Origin: Negativicutes bacterium
GTDB lineage: Bacteria > Bacillota > Negativicutes > UBA1444
Length of the DNA stretch: 64,000 bases
Direction of reading: 5' to 3'
Assembly: GCA_963665275.2 (NCBI GenBank)
Contig: CAXXIN010000009.1
Span: forward strand, 64,001 to 128,000
This document shows, piece by piece, positions 27,662 to 38,667 of this stretch. The notes beneath the pieces are model-generated. The model saw only the letters and a program-made list of their open reading frames with translations, was not told the DNA's origin and did no database searches. Each line of letters begins with the position of its first letter. Position 1 is the stretch's first letter. Position numbers and translations under genes: made by a program.

Positions 27662-28807
27662 TCAAGAATACTTTCGTTTCAAACGATACACATAAGCCAA
27701 CACTTCCGCAACAGCCTTGTATAGGTCTGGGGGAACGAAGTCACCAACTTCTGCATGCTTGAACAATGCTTGCGCCAACGGTTTATTTTCAACGATAACC
27801 ACATCATTTTCTTTGGCTATTTCTCTGATCCTTAGCGCGATAAAATCAGAACCCTTGGCAATCACGGTGGGTGCATCCATGCCTGATTCATACTTCAAAG
27901 CAACGGCAAAATGGGTTGGATTCGTTACGATTACATCGGCTTTGGGAACTTCGGACATCATACGCCGCATCGCCATCGCGCGCTGCTTTTCACGGATTTT
28001 TCCTTTGATCTGGGGATTCCCCTCTGTCTGTTTCATTTCTTCTTTTACTTCTTGTTTACTCATCTTGAGGTTTTGCATATGTTCCCACCACTGGTACCCG
28101 TAATCAAGAATCGCCAAAACCAGTATGACCATTGCGATTTGAAAGGCCAGGTCGTAGATGATGGCAGAAAGAACGGCAAACGACTCTGCAAGTTCGGACA
28201 TCATCAGTGCAGGAATCCGAACAGTTTCCTGTCGTATGAAACGATATATGAAATAGCCCACTACCGTAATTTTCACAAGCGACTTCACAAGTTCAACCAG
28301 GGAACGCTTCGAAAAAATACGGCCAAAACCGGCAATAGGATTAATCCGGCTGAACTGAGGCATAATCGTATCAGGCGTAAAAGCAAAACCAACTTGCATA
28401 AAGGATACGACGACCGACACTACAAGCACGGACACCATAATCGGCAAAATCGCTTCCAGAAAAACCATGCCAGCATTCATAATCACAACGTGAATCGACT
28501 GGATGGTAAAATCGCCGCGAACGTCCAATCCTCCAAAAATAAACCGCATGTAGCCGGTAAGTTTCTCATAAATATAAGGGCTGGCAGTCTTCAATGCGAC
28601 AAATGCCGCCAAAATAACAAATACCGAACTAAGTTCGGCGCTTTTTGCGACCTGCCCCTTTTTTCGACTTTCATCCTGCTTGCGTTGCGTCGGCTCTTCG
28701 GTTTTCTCCGAGGAATCAAAGCGCTGCAGATCAAAGACAAATTGTTTGACAGCGTTATGGTGCGAGGATTTCCAATATACGGGAAAAATCCCGATAAACG
28801 CCTTCAA
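27662..28807 (-). CDS. flhB: Flagellar export switch protein FlhB
   Basis: EKTEEPT, NPTH autocleavage motif; TTG start at 28807 behind GGAGG inside fliR. Confidence 0.96.
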   Translation of the reverse strand: MKAFIGIFPVYWKSSHHNAVKQFVFDLQRFDSSEKTEEPTQRKQDESRKKGQVAKSAELSSVFVILAAFVALKTASPYIYEKLTGYMRFIFGGLDVRGDFTIQSIHVVIMNAGMVFLEAILPIMVSVLVVSVVVSFMQVGFAFTPDTIMPQFSRINPIAGFGRIFSKRSLVELVKSLVKITVVGYFIYRFIRQETVRIPALMMSELAESFAVLSAIIYDLAFQIAMVILVLAILDYGYQWWEHMQNLKMSKQEVKEEMKQTEGNPQIKGKIREKQRAMAMRRMMSEVPKADVIVTNPTHFAVALKYESGMDAPTVIAKGSDFIALRIREIAKENDVVIVENKPLAQALFKHAEVGDFVPPDLYKAVAEVLAYVYRLKRKYS

Positions 28808-29537
28808 ATCCAACCTCCAAAAATGATACATAAAAGGGCAAGATCAAAAACAACATGAACAATCCGACTAGAAGCTTGCCAGTGATGCCGACGACAAACA
28901 CATTCATTTGCGGCATAATCCGGGCCAGAATACCTAGAGCAACGTCGGTCATCAGAACGGTTCCCATTACAGGCAAAGATATTTTAAGCGCCATAACAAA
29001 CATGTTTGCTACGGCATTTATCATAAACTCGGCGGCATTATCCAACTGGATTAGCACACCCAACGGAACGGCCCGAAAATTTTCGGCCATTGCCGAAATA
29101 ATCATATGATGTCCCTGTAATGCAAGAAAAACGGACATGGCCATCAGAAACTTGAAATTGCCGACTAACGGCACCTGTTGGCCGAACTGCGGATCGAAAA
29201 CATTCACCATCCCGAATCCAATTTGCATATCAATCAGTTGGCCCGCCATCTGTACAGACTGCATAAACAGTGATGCGACAAAACCAGCGGACAGTCCGTA
29301 AATCACTTCAATCATCAACCACCATGCCAATAGGGTCAACGACGTTGGTTGACGGTTTTCCGCCAGGGTCGACATCGGCAGCATGAATAGTGAAAGAAGA
29401 ACGGCCAAGCCCACCCGCGCAAAAACAGGAATCGCCTTACTGCCAAAAACCGGCGCACTAGTCAGAGTGCCGGTAATACGGGCAAATATCAGTAAAAACT
29501 GAATGAATTGATTGGTGAGATCAGCCGGGAATTCCAC
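28755..29537 (-). CDS. fliR: Flagellar export protein FliR
   Basis: Hydrophobic; AGQLIDMQIGF, GILARIMPQMNVF. Confidence 0.96.
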   Translation of the reverse strand: MEFPADLTNQFIQFLLIFARITGTLTSAPVFGSKAIPVFARVGLAVLLSLFMLPMSTLAENRQPTSLTLLAWWLMIEVIYGLSAGFVASLFMQSVQMAGQLIDMQIGFGMVNVFDPQFGQQVPLVGNFKFLMAMSVFLALQGHHMIISAMAENFRAVPLGVLIQLDNAAEFMINAVANMFVMALKISLPVMGTVLMTDVALGILARIMPQMNVFVVGITGKLLVGLFMLFLILPFYVSFLEVGFEGVYRDFSRILEILAP

Positions 29538-34585: not shown

Positions 34586-36211
34586 CTAACGTTTCAGATT
34601 GACCAGTTCCTCGAGCATGGTATCGGAGGTGGTAATGATTTTCGAGTTAGCCTGAAAACCACGTTGCGTAATAATCATTTTACTAAATTGATCGGCCAAG
34701 TCAATGTTGGACATTTCCAACGACCCGGGTGTGAGCGTTCCGCGACCGCCAGTTCCGCTGGTACCGACAGCCGGGTTACCGGAGTTGTTGGACGAAGCAA
34801 ACAGCGTGTCACCAATGCGTGATAGTCCGCCCGGGTTGTTGAACGTTGCCAGAGCAACCTGGCCGAGATTTTGAGTGCGTCCGTTGCTGAATTTGCCAAC
34901 CAGAATGCCGCTGGTATCGATGGTTGTGGAGTCCAGACTGCCGGAAGCATATCCGTTCTGAGTCGTAGCCTGAACAGTAGACGATCCACCGTACTGGGTC
35001 AGCGCACTGACATTAAGGGCGATACTGGAAAGTGCCGCTCCGGGAGCCGTGAATGTAACTGGATTAACTGTTGTTGAATAAGTAGGTGCCGGAGTAGGGT
35101 TAGCAGTCGCATTAAAAGAAGATACCGCCGGAGCCGTTACAGCTGCGGGATTAGTAAAAGAAACTGTTGCTTTCGACGCTCCAGATCCAATGTCAAAATT
35201 TTGCGGCAAAGCTGCCGCAGAAAAAGTATAAGTGGCACCCGTCCAGTTGACTTTCCCGGAAAACAAGGTTGAATCGCTGGACTCTCCAGCTTCAGATACT
35301 TTATAATCCCAGTTATCTGTGCTCGTCTGCGTAAAAGTCATCTGCATTACATGAGGATTGTTTTTTGCATCAAATGCAGTGTAATACTGGGTTCTAACCG
35401 ATCCGCTCGCATTATCCAATTGCAAGTTTGGAATCGTTATTGCCGTCGTAGTTGATGCATTCACCGATGACACGGTCGGGTTCTTCCCTGTAGTATCGAA
35501 AACTATTTGTGTCATTGTGCTTCCGCCAAGCGCGAGGCTGCTATCTGCCAAACTCGCCTTGGCGATCCAGGTATTGTTGCCAACTTTCGTAAATGTCTGT
35601 CCAAGATCCTGCGGGTTTCCCAGAGAATCATATACCGTCAACGACGAAACCGCGCTAGCTCCGGGCAGTGCATCGCCGGAAAGGTTGTTGGCGAACTTCA
35701 GTTCAGTTGACGCTAGTGCCGGCATCATCGTCCCTTTGGGTACTTGAATCGAGGTTACTGCGCCTGTCGTATTAATAGCCCCGTTAGCGTCCGCCTGCCA
35801 CCCCATCACTTTCATGCCAGTTCCTGGCACGAGGTAGTTGCCGGCACTATCGAAGTCAAAATTACCGGCGCGGCTATAATATTGGTTCGCGCCGTCAGAG
35901 AGAATGAAAAAACCATCATTCTGAATCGCCAGATCAGTTTGCTTGCCGGTCGATTGATAACTGCCATTGGTAAAGTTCGTGGATATCGCTGCCAGTCCCA
36001 TGCCAAGTCCTACTTGGATCGGATTGGTCCCGCCGCGGTTCCCGGATGCAGCAGCAGCGCCCTGCAGCGTCTGACTGATGACATCGGAAAAAGTGGCGGA
36101 TGACCCTTTGTAACCAACGGTGTTGACGTTGGAAATATTTGCCCCTATCACGTCCATGGAAGTCTGGTGGTTACGCAGACCTGCCACGCCCGAGAATAAT
36201 GAACGCATCAT
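34586..36211 (-). CDS. flgE: Flagellar hook protein FlgE
   Basis: MMRSLFSGVAGL..HQT.MDVIGANISNVNT.GYK; LEMSNIDLADQFSKMIITQRGFQANSK. Confidence 0.95.
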   Translation of the reverse strand: MMRSLFSGVAGLRNHQTSMDVIGANISNVNTVGYKGSSATFSDVISQTLQGAAAASGNRGGTNPIQVGLGMGLAAISTNFTNGSYQSTGKQTDLAIQNDGFFILSDGANQYYSRAGNFDFDSAGNYLVPGTGMKVMGWQADANGAINTTGAVTSIQVPKGTMMPALASTELKFANNLSGDALPGASAVSSLTVYDSLGNPQDLGQTFTKVGNNTWIAKASLADSSLALGGSTMTQIVFDTTGKNPTVSSVNASTTTAITIPNLQLDNASGSVRTQYYTAFDAKNNPHVMQMTFTQTSTDNWDYKVSEAGESSDSTLFSGKVNWTGATYTFSAAALPQNFDIGSGASKATVSFTNPAAVTAPAVSSFNATANPTPAPTYSTTVNPVTFTAPGAALSSIALNVSALTQYGGSSTVQATTQNGYASGSLDSTTIDTSGILVGKFSNGRTQNLGQVALATFNNPGGLSRIGDTLFASSNNSGNPAVGTSGTGGRGTLTPGSLEMSNIDLADQFSKMIITQRGFQANSKIITTSDTMLEELVNLKR

Positions 36212-36261
36212 AATAAATTGACCTCCCTAATATTTTCGATATCCCTGAAGATTGCGTCGTG

Positions 36262-36312
36262 CGGCTGCTTCAATCCTTCGGCAGCCGGGGACTCCCCCGA
36301 GAGGTCCAGTCC
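36262..36312 (-). ncRNA. Candidate cis-regulatory two-hairpin RNA in the flgE leader
   Basis: GGACU-GGA-CCUC-UCG-GGGG-AGUCC, then CGGCUGC-CGAAGGAUUGAA-GCAGCCG; no U-tract; ~40 nt upstream of the flgE RBS. Confidence 0.6.
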
Positions 36313-36704
36313 TATACGATCACGGCGCTGTCAATGTTAGTAAAAACATTATCTTTGATACTGGCTCCATCCATCGCAGTGATCACAGTTCGATTGGTCA
36401 CACTTACAACTAACGCCAAATCCTTGTCCATCAGAATCAGAGATTCCCGCGCGCCCTTTTGCGCCGCCTTGTCCACTGCGTTATTCAGTTGGCTTATCTG
36501 CGTCGGCGTCAGGTTGATGTTACGGGTCTGGAGCCGTTGTGTAGCATGCTGGGAAAACTTCACTCCGCTGATGGCCTGGTTAAGTACCTGTTCGAATCCG
36601 CCGCCCGTGGTTTGCGTTCCTACTGAACGAGTTTTATTGACTGTTGTCGACGTTTGTATCGGTTGGATCGGTTGATTTGCTAGATAAAATCTACTGTCAG
36701 CCAT
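36312..36704 (-). CDS. Flagellar operon protein (TIGR02530-like)
   Basis: KFSQHATQRLQTRNI, KGARESL, NRTVITAMD, NVFTNIDSAVI; located between flgD and flgE. Confidence 0.9.
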   Translation of the reverse strand: MADSRFYLANQPIQPIQTSTTVNKTRSVGTQTTGGGFEQVLNQAISGVKFSQHATQRLQTRNINLTPTQISQLNNAVDKAAQKGARESLILMDKDLALVVSVTNRTVITAMDGASIKDNVFTNIDSAVIV

Positions 36705-36724: not shown

Positions 36725-37135
36725 TTAGGTTGCACTAGTCGTAGAGGGTTCAGCGACAGAAGTGATTTTGGTCAGGACCAAGGACTGATCCCCGACAATG
36801 ATCTTGGGTTCGCTATTTACCATGCGCACTGATTTGACGATACCCGTCTGCTCCACACCCTGTTCGTTGTCCCAGGTCACTTGTTTGCCAATATAGGCGG
36901 TAGCCTGTGTCATCTGGATGGACGTATTCATGTTTTTCATCTGTTCCAGACTGGTAAACTGGGCCATTTGTGAGATGAATTCTTTGTCATCCATCGGATT
37001 CATAGGATCCTGGGATTGCAGCTGTGTAACCAGCAGTTTCAGAAAATCATCTTTTCCCAGCACCGAATTGCTGTTGGTGGAAGTTGTCGACGTGGTGGTC
37101 GTTCCTGTCGTTCCTGTTATGGGTGAAACACTCAT
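36725..37135 (-). CDS. flgD: Flagellar hook cap FlgD
   Basis: LGKDDFLKLLVTQLQSQDPMNPMD..FISQMAQFTSLEQM. Confidence 0.96.
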   Translation of the reverse strand: MSVSPITGTTGTTTTSTTSTNSNSVLGKDDFLKLLVTQLQSQDPMNPMDDKEFISQMAQFTSLEQMKNMNTSIQMTQATAYIGKQVTWDNEQGVEQTGIVKSVRMVNSEPKIIVGDQSLVLTKITSVAEPSTTSAT

Positions 37136-37155: not shown

Positions 37156-38667
37156 TTAAATTCTGTAATCAACCGCTGCTGCAGTCATCACTTGCAGTCG
37201 GCCGGTATTCGTAAATCCTGTAGAGTCCTCGTACATATCACGTTGTGTGCGGTGAGAAAACTGACGCAGTTGCTGCTCCTGAGCCTGAGACTGCTGTTGT
37301 TGCTGTTGATTAGCCAGGAAGTCCTTCATCCCGCCAAAAACGCCGTCGGAATCGAATTTCCATCCCTGCTGGGACATTTCCTGACGTAACTGAGGCAGCG
37401 AACTTTCCAAAATTGCCCGAACTTCGGAACTGGCAGCATGGAAAGCGGCAGTCACTTTGTCTCCGTCAACATTGATCTTGACGGTTACTTCTCCTAGATG
37501 CTCAGGTTTCAGCGTAATGATCACCTGTGAGCTTTTCAGACGATCAGCGGATGTCGACATGCCATCCAGGACCTGACGCGTTACTTCATGAAGTTCCTGG
37601 CGAAGGGGTTGGGCCAAGGAGGCCGGATTTTGAACCTGATCAACGGACTTGAGAAGATTGTCAAAGGTCAATGGAGCCATTCCAGTGGAATCGGCCTTGT
37701 TGACAGTGGGCATAAACGGATCGGTTTCTGTTTCACCCAGCGCCTTTTTCGGCAATTGTCCTTCAGCGGTCGGGGCTGCAATTTTTTCCTCTGCCTTAGC
37801 CCCCAATCCGAAAACGGGCTCTGGCTCAATCTCCGATGGTACAGCTTCGGCTTCAGGATCTGCTGCCGATATTTCCGGAGTTTTCGTGGTCGGTCCAGTA
37901 AGCACTGACTGTATCGATAAAACAGACTGTTGAAGTTTGGGATCGAGAGTATTTGGCTCCGAGTTCACCGACGTTGGTAAAACGTCTTGAACAGGAACAT
38001 CTGGAAGAGTACTAACCACCGATTGCTCTGTTTTCATGGTCGGTTCTGACATAACCTGTGCCGCTTGGTCTGTGGGCGCAGGCTCAGGTAGCGACGTATC
38101 TGTGATTGCGTCCGTAACCAACGGTTTGGTGGACGCTTCAACCGTTGCCGTTACAGGAGTCGCCTTTGCAACTTCTACCGATGCAGAAAAACCGATAGGC
38201 ATTGTTGGTGTTTGCAGTGAAGGTTTCGCGACTTGTCCCTGCATTACGGACAGTGGAAGAATTTGTTGCCCATTGGTTTCCAGCATTTCTGTCACTTCCG
38301 ATGGGACCGAACCCTGGGCGACAATTCCGGTAACAGCGCCCTGCACAGCAGCGTTGTCTGGTGGAACAGGAATCATATTATTACTATTGAGATTCCAAAC
38401 CAAGCCCACTGGTAATCCCGTAGCAGTTGGTTCGTCTTTCTCGTCCGATTTTTCTGCTGCTTTTGTTTTCGCAGCTGATTTTGACTCATTGGCTTCAGTT
38501 GAGGCCGTCTTGTCCAAGGCCGACGAAAGCTTTTTCGAAAAGCTATCGGAGCGTTGTTCGGATTTTTTGGCTGTAGTTCCAGATATTCCGGAATTCGCGG
38601 CATTCTGAGTCATTACAGTGCCAATCGGCAAACTGGCTGGTAATTCTTTGGTCATGATCATTTCCAT
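37156..38667 (-). CDS. fliK: Flagellar hook-length control protein FliK
   Basis: Long P/T/S-rich low-complexity region plus T3S4 domain (ITLKPEHLGEV...LESSLPQLR). Confidence 0.9.
   Translation of the reverse strand: MEMIMTKELPASLPIGTVMTQNAANSGISGTTAKKSEQRSDSFSKKLSSALDKTASTEANESKSAAKTKAAEKSDEKDEPTATGLPVGLVWNLNSNNMIPVPPDNAAVQGAVTGIVAQGSVPSEVTEMLETNGQQILPLSVMQGQVAKPSLQTPTMPIGFSASVEVAKATPVTATVEASTKPLVTDAITDTSLPEPAPTDQAAQVMSEPTMKTEQSVVSTLPDVPVQDVLPTSVNSEPNTLDPKLQQSVLSIQSVLTGPTTKTPEISAADPEAEAVPSEIEPEPVFGLGAKAEEKIAAPTAEGQLPKKALGETETDPFMPTVNKADSTGMAPLTFDNLLKSVDQVQNPASLAQPLRQELHEVTRQVLDGMSTSADRLKSSQVIITLKPEHLGEVTVKINVDGDKVTAAFHAASSEVRAILESSLPQLRQEMSQQGWKFDSDGVFGGMKDFLANQQQQQQSQAQEQQLRQFSHRTQRDMYEDSTGFTNTGRLQVMTAAAVDYRI

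Follow-up and report, generated by a model that had tools for sequence, protein, structure and literature searches.

Why does a run of flagellar genes open a gap directly before the gene for the hook protein, and what does the sequence in this gap do? The question is raised by a locus in positions 64,001 to 128,000 of contig CAXXIN010000009.1 from a Negativicutes bacterium (assembly GCA_963665275.2), a stretch of 64,000 nucleotides (nt) which we refer to as the window. In it, a 130-amino-acid (aa) open reading frame (ORF) of the TIGR02530 (Flagellar_put) family is followed by flgE after 100 nt. A first-pass annotation, made from the letters of this DNA, had correctly described the gap and had proposed that its transcript folds into two hairpins which the TIGR02530 protein binds or cleaves, setting FlgE synthesis, and that the protein may itself be exported. 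We found that the two-hairpin element is one copy of a conserved, widespread leader RNA family which is absent from Rfam, and which appears to track the TIGR02530 gene across genomes. Flagellar checkpoints are textbook examples of gene control, and the tuning of the unequal amounts of hook, rod and cap protein which are encoded in one long early operon is poorly understood.

A conserved two-hairpin leader RNA before flgE

Both hairpins lie exactly where they had been drawn: hairpin 1 has a GGACU/AGUCC stem, a GGA bulge and a CCUC/GGGG stem, and hairpin 2 is closed by CGGCUGC/GCAGCCG (Table 1). The first base of hairpin 1 is the last base of the UAG stop codon of TIGR02530, the loop of hairpin 2 holds three GA dinucleotides with a period of 4, and the whole motif is 59 nt long. 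When the 3.97-Mb assembly was searched with the covariance model R1, one strong copy was found (77.1 bits); the next match reached 18.6 bits and had a non-flagellar context.

The evidence for the fold is comparative. Of 41 related genomes searched with the protein, 26 had the gene, and in 25 of these 26 loci flgE lay 74–177 nt 3′ of it, with intergenic sequences which align strikingly well. RNAalifold predicted both hairpins from 22 related loci, with compensatory change in 11 of 12 pairs. For a 15-pair structure, 95.7% of cells pair in these 22 loci vs 79.5 ± 1.2 in shuffles (0 of 500 reached the observed value), slid registers give 30–50% pairing, and a two-sided change was found in 13 of the 15 pairs. 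A wider set of 77 sequences, made up of 57 flgE leaders of many phyla and 20 other copies, gave 93.2% vs 73.8 ± 0.8 in shuffles, with double changes in 245 cells vs 69 ± 12 and again 13 of 15 pairs compensatory. The covariation on which the first-pass annotation had staked its proposal is accordingly present in both sets, and compensatory change affects all 5 outer pairs of hairpin 1 and all 7 stem pairs of hairpin 2. That the leader fold is beyond chance is shown by this comparative evidence; taken by itself, the sequence does not fold significantly better than its shuffles (z = −1.17), of which 28 of 200 fold equally well.

The consensus of hairpin 1 is an outer stem followed by a 5′ G-G-N internal loop which faces one purine and is flanked by invariant CC/GG (GGNCC/GGRRG for the family). 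Its distal stem varies in length and carries long insertions in Chitinispirillaceae-like sequences. In hairpin 2 a stem of 6–8 bp closes the loop Y-GA-NY-GA-YN-GA-R. All of 76 sequences keep G12, G13 and C15, GA..GA..GA is invariant in the 22 related sequences, and each GA is present in 75–76 of the 76; about 16 nucleotides are near-invariant in the RNA family as a whole. The GA-rich loop which had drawn attention in the window is in this respect conserved, and the GGA inside it is specific to this genus. An extra pair closing the loop of hairpin 2 (columns 70–81) is standard in 44 of 75 sequences and is not claimed. Two leaders of related loci are longer and carry extra GC-rich hairpins: between the motif and flgE in L015 (1315–1512; 177 nt) and 5′ of the motif in L025 (1321–1512; 171 nt).

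An intrinsic terminator was rejected, in agreement with the first reading of the sequence: no U-tract lies behind either hairpin and no terminator-like site was found on the minus strand between 35900 and 37300. Promoter-like hexamers in the leader (36239–36210) are at chance level, with 1 found vs 1.3 expected.

All 4227 families of Rfam 15 gave nothing over the hairpins at E ≤ 10, with two unrelated sub-threshold matches elsewhere in the 1-kb stretch, and none of them matched any of 16 phylogenetically diverse loci at E ≤ 1. By this model matching alone the motif is set apart from Termite-flg (RF01729) and flg-Rhizobiales (RF01736), which the available text of Weinberg 2010 (PMC2864571) gives as candidate cis-regulatory RNAs 5′ of flagellar genes, found by comparative genomics. 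Flagellar terms lead only to raiA, flg-Rhizobiales and Termite-flg in the available text of PMC5737381 and PMC2864571, and to nothing in that of PMC8632094 and PMC8040213. We found no description of this leader motif in a search of main texts only, which left supplementary motif lists aside that could bear on novelty, and, among the matches listed, no paper joining flgE with RNA-motif terms.

Table 1 Positions in the window of the leader RNA, its parts and the genes around it
Feature	Position	Strand	Description
fliK	37156-38667	minus	first in gene order fliK-flgD-TIGR02530-flgE-flbD-fliL-fliM
flgD (hook cap)	36725..37135	minus	5′ neighbour of TIGR02530 gene; Pfam FlgD, E 1.7e-27
TIGR02530 / Flagellar_put gene	36312..36704	minus	130 aa, stop included; predicted disordered N-terminus, then BECR-like core
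F37-E-Q-V-L41 (FxxxPhi, N-terminal extension)	codons 36582..36596	minus	conservation in 60 sequences
FSQHATQRLQTRNI, residues 50-63 (helix motif shared with DUF4258)	codons 36516..36557	minus	conservation, hhalign
Full covariance-model match to two-hairpin motif	36258..36316	minus	R1 77.1 bits, E 2.5e-16; R2 56.6 bits
Hairpin 1	36289..36312	minus	5-bp outer stem GGACU/AGUCC, GGA/G internal loop, inner CCU/GGG stem; from sequence
GACCUCUC, anti-Shine-Dalgarno in 5′ strand of hairpin 1	36299..36306	minus	perfect 8-bp duplex with GGGAGGUC, used by minimum free energy fold
Hairpin 2	36262..36287	minus	7-bp stem CGGCUGC/GCAGCCG, 12-nt loop CGAAGGAUUGAA; from sequence
GGGAGGUC, flgE Shine-Dalgarno region	36220..36227	minus	from sequence
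flgE (hook protein, 541 aa)	34586..36211	minus	3′ of leader; Pfam FlgE_D2, Flg_bbr_C, Flg_bb_rod
FxxxPhi codons of fliK	38527-38541	minus	approximate
FxxxPhi codons of flgD	37031-37045	minus	approximate
FxxxPhi codons of TIGR02530	36582-36596	minus	approximate
FxxxPhi codons of flgE	36077-36091	minus	approximate

Distribution of the motif and its link to the TIGR02530 gene

We scanned GTDB, with one genome per species, using an alignment of 60 family proteins as query and kept the best 80 of 584 relative-coding stretches. In 80 of these 80 loci, which come from many phyla, the motif lies directly 3′ of TIGR02530 on the same strand; R1 found 77 of them, and the three which it missed were recovered by the broader model R2, unfiltered (31.7, 30.3 and 19.0 bits). 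The carriers include Sporomusa, Pelosinus, Anaerovibrio, Pectinatus, Syntrophomonas, Peptococcaceae, Thermincola, Tepidanaerobacter, Paenibacillus, Cohnella and Geobacter/Citrifermentans/Geomonas and, by genome label, Chitinispirillaceae, Fibrobacteres, Ignavibacteriota, Kryptoniota, Omnitrophota and more. The suggestion in the first-pass annotation that similar sequence stands at this position in other Firmicutes proved true, and it extends far beyond them. Among these loci the nearest named relatives are Sporomusa and Pelosinus. In the window's class the motif was directly 3′ of the TIGR02530 gene in 26 of 26 loci (25 seen first; L026, L015, L018 and L025 confirmed later), and the order flgD-TIGR02530-flgE recurs in 25 of the 26.

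Genome-wide searches, which were run motif-first, gave a similar picture. In the window's class, 87 of 151 genomes have the motif and 83 have TIGR02530 (both 81, motif only 6, protein only 2); the corresponding numbers are 95 and 90 of 125 in a sample of the Syntrophomonas class (both 88, motif only 7, protein only 2) and 67 and 69 of 151 in a sample of Bacilli, the class of a Paenibacillus genome (both 66, motif only 1, protein only 3). The motif was 0–101 nt 3′ of the protein match on the same strand in 25 of 25 pairs whose coordinates were compared by eye. The window's class cannot tell whether the motif tracks the protein or the flagellum, because all its flagellated families have both. 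The Bacilli are more informative: 113 of the 151 genomes have FlgE/F/G, and among these flagellated genomes 66 have both motif and protein, 43 have neither, 3 have the protein only and 1 has the motif only. The single motif-only match is weak (24.5 bits, E 0.004) and the three protein-only genomes belong to a divergent subfamily under the family cut-off. TIGR02530 was also absent from 14 control genomes, including B. subtilis and E. coli, and no sampled flagellated lineage retains the leader after loss of the TIGR02530 gene. This suggests that the motif tracks TIGR02530 and not flagellation as such, as an RNA which depends on the protein had been expected to do. Among the six motif-only genomes of the window's class, five are 73–92% complete (four below 91%) and have only a copy of the flgG type described below; in one the match is at a contig edge. 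It should also be noted that six genomes of one family of this class (G082, G097, G107, G126, G130 and G134, family f13) have two or three TIGR02530 genes each, and that two of them, G097 and G130, gave no motif match under stricter filters.

We also scanned metagenomes with a pattern for the common CUGGACC variant only, which gave at least 118 stretches, of which 80 were examined. Of these 80 loci, 65 are real motif instances (52 by both flanking genes and 13 by covariance model), 60 of them with a TIGR02530 match by hidden Markov model 5′ of the motif, and 15 are chance pattern matches of at most 16 bits with R2. Covariance-model scoring covered 32 of the 80 loci, namely the 28 without both flanking genes and 4 controls. 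The real loci without the protein number 5: two are flgF-flgG, one is flgD-flgE, one has 440 nt of AT-rich sequence without genes before flgE, and in one the region 5′ of the motif is cut off. On one metagenome contig (L233, 1–440) a Geobacter-like flgE leader stands behind ~440 nt of T-rich, repeat-like non-coding DNA, with no TIGR02530 gene.

flgE had been taken as the target of the element, and it is not the sole one: copies away from TIGR02530 stand 5′ of flgG, of a second flgE and of some flagellin genes. Many of the 87 motif-positive genomes in the window's class carry two matches. All 14 second matches which were examined lie between a FlgF-like gene of ~247 aa and an FlgG gene of 260–290 aa, with flgA and flgH following, genes which mark the class as diderm Firmicutes. 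Among 40 further matches in the class, 31 precede an FlgG-like ORF and 6 precede an FlgE-like ORF of ~300 aa, with an FlgD-like gene 5′ and no TIGR02530 between; the rest are one second flgE-type copy, one match at a contig edge and one doubtful match (25 bits). The second copy in Syntrophomonas forms the 5′ untranslated region of an flgG-like gene and has no ORF 5′ of it. In genomes of the Syntrophomonas class with 3–5 copies, 15 extra copies were examined: five before flgG-like genes, three before flagellin genes, one flgD2-flgE2, one flgE and five unclear. Copies of 36–44 bits stand 5′ of flagellin genes at L340, L343 and L352 (genomes G314, G316 and G361 of this class), with 149–175 nt to the start codon in two of them. 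The regulon can thus include the filament subunit. The gene 5′ of the motif varies across copies (TIGR02530, flgF, flgD2 or none); since the copies precede flgE, flgG, a second flgE or flagellin, the common denominator is the downstream gene, which encodes an axial, exported and abundant subunit.

The genome of the window itself is 92.6% complete as assembled, and no FlgG ortholog was found in it with an FlgG query from the same genus, the best matches being FlgE and an FlgE-like paralog at 38–40% identity; an flgG copy of the motif in this genome therefore cannot be judged. All 11 other genomes of the genus in the sample carry a motif copy which either has a score like the flgG type or was shown to belong to it (7 confirmed), and the flgF-flgG-flgA-flgH cluster is probably missing from the assembly. 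Another contig of the same genome (L205 1460–1600; G000:C7:669552–669600, minus strand) holds a second hook-like locus, with an FlgD-like ORF of 141 aa, an FlgE-like ORF of 468 aa and no TIGR02530 between them. The motif copy between this flgD2 and flgE2 is degenerate (R2 21.7 bits, E 0.029): hairpin 1 is intact and the loop of hairpin 2 has lost GA-GA-GA. The equivalent flgD2-flgE2 copy of a relative in the same genus (L087) keeps the GA-GA-GA signature.

The spacing of the motif is loose on both sides. Its end is ~10–166 nt from the start codon in the 58 loci in which a start was found by script, and the distance from the TIGR02530 stop codon to the motif is up to 72 nt in Geobacter-like loci. 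The overlap of stop codon and hairpin 1 which had stood out in the window is for this reason not essential. In one Geobacter sp. (L182, ~1900–1947) the 72 nt from stop to motif are filled by a short tandem repeat with units like AACCTCGAAC.

Fold and N-terminal extension of the TIGR02530 protein

The ORF is a full-length member of TIGR02530, scoring 118.2 bits with the NCBIfam model (cut-off 83.2; E 2e-34); PF12611 is matched by the C-terminal 24 residues at 49.1 bits (cut-off 21.1; E 4.8e-13). The family comprises 1989 clusters at E ≤ 0.001 among 1.84 billion library representatives, nearly all of 100–170 aa. An AlphaFold2 model built on 60 sequences, with a mean predicted local distance difference test score (pLDDT) of 83.3, places a short helix at residues 37–45 and then a core of H52–60, H67–82, E87–92, E96–101, E106–112, H113–118 and E126–129; residues 1–35 are of low confidence.

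The protein looks like a member of the BECR fold of RelE/ParE toxins and resembles DUF4258, as the first-pass annotation had guessed from its HAxxR motif and a later ITxx strand. An exhaustive structure search with VIA returned RelE/ParE-superfamily toxins in 13 of the first 17 rows, and in a second look the first 11 rows were all RelE/ParE/HigB, with colicin E5 RNase at Z 4.1. The top 11–13 neighbours have Z of 4.7–6.0 and a root-mean-square deviation (rmsd) of 3.2–5.3 Å over 65–83 residues, Z values which are all below 8, a range that can reflect a common arrangement. They include HigB2 (5mje; Z 6.0, rmsd 5.3 Å over 83 residues), ParE1 (8c24; Z 5.8, rmsd 3.2 Å over 69 residues), the RelE-like domain of Cami1 (8phb; Z 5.8) and RelE (2khe; Z 5.4), with T4 RegB (2hx6; Z 3.7) lower in the list. 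A family-profile sequence search of the PDB had a best E of 0.31, to an unrelated protein, and a search of the ESM Atlas returned only the TIGR02530 family itself.

The sequence of the first core helix points the same way. Across 60 sequences S51 and H53 never vary, and conservation is 90% or higher at F50, A54 and R57. With hhalign, the family matched 11 DUF4258 domains from genomes of the class with a probability of 86.9% (E 4.2e-6), pairing FSxHAxxRLxxRxI with xTxHxxxRxxQRGI. Pfam DUF4258 itself gave weak matches in 24 of 60 members (best E 0.0017), none at the gathering score, and the xVITAM strand of TIGR02530 resembles IITAY of DUF4258 by eye only. The core predicted for TIGR02530 appears to be of the alpha/beta type of DUF4258 (PF14076)/Ntox49 and the RelE/ParE toxins, and its first helix has their motif (S/T)xHxxxRxxxRxI. 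Unlike these toxins, TIGR02530 is fixed between flgD and flgE without an antitoxin neighbour, and it carries an additional conserved segment at its C-terminus, NVFTNIDSAVI (PF12611), and a disordered extension of ~45 aa with FxxxL at its N-terminus. At the window locus the only neighbours are flgD and flgE, with no antitoxin-like gene adjoining, and TIGR02530 is for this reason not a toxin-antitoxin module.

Phage T4 RegB is a sequence-specific mRNA endoribonuclease which acts at purine-rich GGAG-type sites near ribosome-binding sites. It has a RelE-like fold, and the leader here has an invariant GGRRG strand; the structural similarity is low, and a shared cut site or mechanism would be conjecture.

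The available text of two sources classes DUF4258 as a BECR-fold toxin family (PMC11980606; 10.64898/2026.08.28.747851); the second, a preprint of 2026, assigns it to the colicin-like branch, and flagella are unmentioned in the available text of both. For PF12611/Flagellar_put/flg_new the sole relevant match was a table entry in the available part of a 2026 survey of flagellar genes, where the PF12611/TIGR02530 family is entered as 'function unknown' (PMC13277936). A search on the name TIGR02530 gave a megaphage paper among the matches listed, and no paper among the matches listed pairs BECR with the flagellar hook or flgD.

The N-terminus had been described as of low complexity and of the type used for export, and this description held well: residues 1–35 have low pLDDT and are followed by a conserved FxxxL, as in early export substrates. 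F37 (invariant) and L41 (at least 90%) are the only conserved positions in the N-terminal 45 residues of 60 sequences. An FxxxPhi was found 11–18 aa before the core in 134 of 147 representatives with the core motif, with its F at median residue 35, vs 1 of 147 in a control window. FxxxPhi occurs at residues 31–47 in four consecutive products of the operon, as F43SKKL in FliK, F31LKLL in FlgD, F37EQVL in TIGR02530 and F41SDVI in FlgE. According to the available text of PMC8983047, the gate recognition motif of Salmonella FlgD is 36-FLTLL-40 and docks early subunits on FlhB-C, with docking also using small non-polar residues near the N-terminus, about 19–24 residues or more upstream. The FxxxL of TIGR02530 has the form and place of this motif.

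When the complex of residues 1–62 with the FlhB-C of the same genome was predicted, the score was 0.37 vs 0.02 for the best control, with at least 73% of contacts common between runs and a partner pLDDT of at least 47. Among solved complexes 58 of 80 reach the mark used, compared with 2 of 110 mismatched pairs; at 0.60 or under it is reached by only 7 of the 80 solved complexes and by both of the passing mismatches. The likeness of this prediction to a gate recognition motif on FlhB-C could stem from the model's memory of related work. Together, motif and model suggest that the N-terminus may be an export signal of the rod/hook type. The longest FlhB ORF in the window (389 aa; 27662–28831, minus strand) starts ~30 codons 5′ of the usual conserved FlhB N-terminus (..FDLQRFDSSEKTEEPT..), and the true start of FlhB is probably internal to it.

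Possible roles of the protein and its leader RNA

The proposal that protein and RNA act together is partly supported and is, judged from sequence comparison and structure models, the best available hypothesis. It survived every comparative and fold check which was run, with binding, cleavage, export and the direction of control remaining putative. On balance we lean towards a reading in which the element is a conserved cis-acting leader of axial-subunit mRNAs and TIGR02530 recognises, cleaves or clamps this leader and thereby sets the stability or translation of the hook mRNA. A specific reader is called for because the nucleotides of the loop and of the internal loop are invariant, and the phyletic pattern points to TIGR02530; we infer from this that protein and RNA interact. 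In the loci examined the 59-nt leader stands 5′ of flgE wherever TIGR02530 exists, and in some lineages also 5′ of flgG, a second flgE or flagellin. The TIGR02530 product would read its invariant parts, namely the internal loop GGNCC/GGRRG in hairpin 1 and the GA-GA-GA signature in the loop of hairpin 2, and by cleaving or clamping the leader would act on the hook mRNA and on those rod and filament mRNAs which have copies. Through the RNA, TIGR02530 thus probably sets the amount of hook, rod and sometimes filament protein. What sign this control has, and whether it is coupled to export by the N-terminal FxxxL, is a matter for speculation.

Two mechanisms can be envisaged. BECR nucleases leave a 5′-OH end, and cleavage would place such an end just ahead of or within a hairpin, so that the downstream mRNA is stabilised or destabilised. 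Alternatively, the protein could choose between conformers, with the 5′ strand of hairpin 1, GACCUCUC, swapping to the Shine-Dalgarno (SD) region of flgE in this genome. Since this strand can pair with the SD region, whatever holds or cuts hairpin 1 would decide whether the site opens.

A more specific version, in which TIGR02530 is a domesticated BECR RNase and itself an export substrate, which cuts or locks the leaders of hook, distal-rod and some flagellin mRNAs until gate-driven secretion releases synthesis, is put forward tentatively and is on the doubtful side. While the gate is inactive TIGR02530 would accumulate and cut or lock the leaders; once the gate works it would be secreted and bulk axial synthesis would be freed. 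FlgM and sigma-28 form a well-known export checkpoint. If TIGR02530 is exported via FxxxL, it would resemble FlgM as a cytoplasmic regulator which is removed by the export apparatus, tying synthesis to the state of assembly; it would differ in acting on RNA and not on a sigma factor, at the rod/hook stage. Such a system would be an RNA-level counterpart of the FlgM checkpoint, one stage earlier, derived from a toxin fold and spread from Firmicutes to Geobacter and Fibrobacteres-like lineages.

Several points weigh against the reading in which TIGR02530 acts on its leader. Co-occurrence is partly trivial because an adjoining gene and motif are inherited as one block, and related genomes in the co-occurrence counts are not independent. 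In the window's class 6 of 151 genomes, and in the Syntrophomonas class 7 of 125, have the motif without a detected protein; these assemblies are incomplete or of unstated completeness. No RNA run containing the locus was listed among 23 runs. On the side of the protein, the VIA scores are low, Foldseek with the model returned nothing from the PDB at E ≤ 0.001, the hhalign match to DUF4258 spans 18 columns only, and the prediction with FlhB-C counts as 'weak support' by the tool's own verdict. DUF4258 is itself without demonstrated activity in the available text of PMC11980606. Lastly, riboregulation through anti-SD pairing, free of any protein, is possible in this lineage.

The rival which survives best is a protein-independent element of mRNA processing or stability, or a translation enhancer, which is read by housekeeping machinery (RNase Y/J/III, the ribosome) and raises abundant axial subunits relative to their operon neighbours, with TIGR02530 merely adjacent and serving another flagellar role. 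All downstream genes indeed encode high-copy axial subunits (FlgE, FlgG, flagellin), there are copies without an adjoining TIGR02530 gene, and the variable distance to the start codon is as for a 5′ stabiliser. However, a hairpin which acts as a stabiliser would have no need of invariant nucleotides in its loop or internal loop, and the 43 of 113 flagellated Bacilli without the motif which are also without TIGR02530 are hard to explain. We regard this rival as rather unlikely.

It is less probable again that the element is chiefly a switch of the ribosome-binding site, in which the 5′ strand of hairpin 1 masks the SD of flgE and a ribosome terminating at the TIGR02530 stop codon unmasks it by long-range translational coupling. 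In this leader an 8-bp anti-SD:SD duplex can form. The ensemble predicted for the 115-nt leader has the SD paired (probability of being unpaired ≤ 0.04), and the two conformers are almost equal in energy (−30.9 vs −30.4 kcal/mol). Over 56 loci, matched anti-SD/SD duplexes are also stronger than permuted ones (−8.97 vs −7.96 ± 0.20 kcal/mol; 0 of 5000 permutations reach the observed value, in a test which ignores the relatedness of loci). Against this, the duplex is weaker than −3 kcal/mol in 7 of the 56 loci, the stop codon is displaced in Geobacter-like loci, the flgG and flagellin copies have no overlapping stop codon and some have no 5′ ORF at all, long insertions are tolerated in the inner stem, and the invariant loop of hairpin 2 is left unexplained. 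This loop showed no signal of pairing with the flgE initiation region (matched −7.27 vs permuted −6.91 ± 0.19, 94 of 3000; shuffled loops −7.01). Since it ends at such variable distances, ~10–166 nt, before the start codon, the motif is unlikely to work in general by sterically masking the ribosome-binding site. Because 7 of 56 loci have almost no pairing and relatedness was ignored, masking of the SD is better seen as a lineage-specific output stage than as the core of the system.

A small riboswitch for a motility-relevant metabolite or second messenger would fit a compact, highly conserved two-hairpin fold found in 5′ leaders across phyla, with SD pairing as a possible expression platform. 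We think it distinctly improbable, given that its presence follows one protein gene and not flagellation, that the variable inner stem and the 12-nt loop of repeated GA look like a protein-binding site, and that the gene context yields no candidate ligand.

FliW-CsrA controls the flagellin (hag) leader in Bacillus subtilis, and this is one of the closest known parallels to what we propose: likewise post-transcriptional control of an abundant axial subunit by a structured 5′ leader and a dedicated small protein, and likewise open to being tied logically to export. The leader could on this model be a CsrA target itself, as flagellin leaders are, since GGA stands at three places in this genome, namely in the bulge of hairpin 1, in the loop of hairpin 2 and in the SD. 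The GGA of hairpin 2 is, however, confined to this genus, and at the final position of the GGA in hairpin 1, 67 of 76 sequences have A, 5 have C and 4 have U. B. subtilis has CsrA/FliW, yet this flagellated control genome is without TIGR02530. We therefore hold direct control by CsrA to be very improbable. The present system differs from FliW-CsrA in having no family-wide GGA in the RNA, a BECR-like protein in place of CsrA and the hook gene as its main target, and its interaction is proposed. The CsrA/FliW pairing is named in the available text of PMC13277936.

That protein and RNA form a pair like a type III toxin-antitoxin system, with a BECR toxin held in check by the RNA, is barely credible: a BECR-like protein without a protein antitoxin gene does adjoin a structured RNA, but this RNA is single copy and 3′ of the gene, not tandem repeats 5′ of the toxin as in ToxIN, it also occurs unlinked before axial-subunit genes, and the pair is fixed inside flagellar operons of many phyla.

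If the link between TIGR02530 and its leader holds, it would give TIGR02530 a function, the BECR fold a non-toxin role and, possibly, the hook and rod an export-coupled RNA checkpoint. The protein-RNA pair is present in Paenibacillus, Geobacter and relatives of Sporomusa/Pelosinus, and Paenibacillus and Geobacter are genera with genetic tools. An RNA family outside Rfam and a protein family which the available text of PMC13277936 lists as 'function unknown' form a concrete, testable pair. In the window, flgE is followed by ORFs for flbD, fliL and fliM, which also lie on the minus strand.

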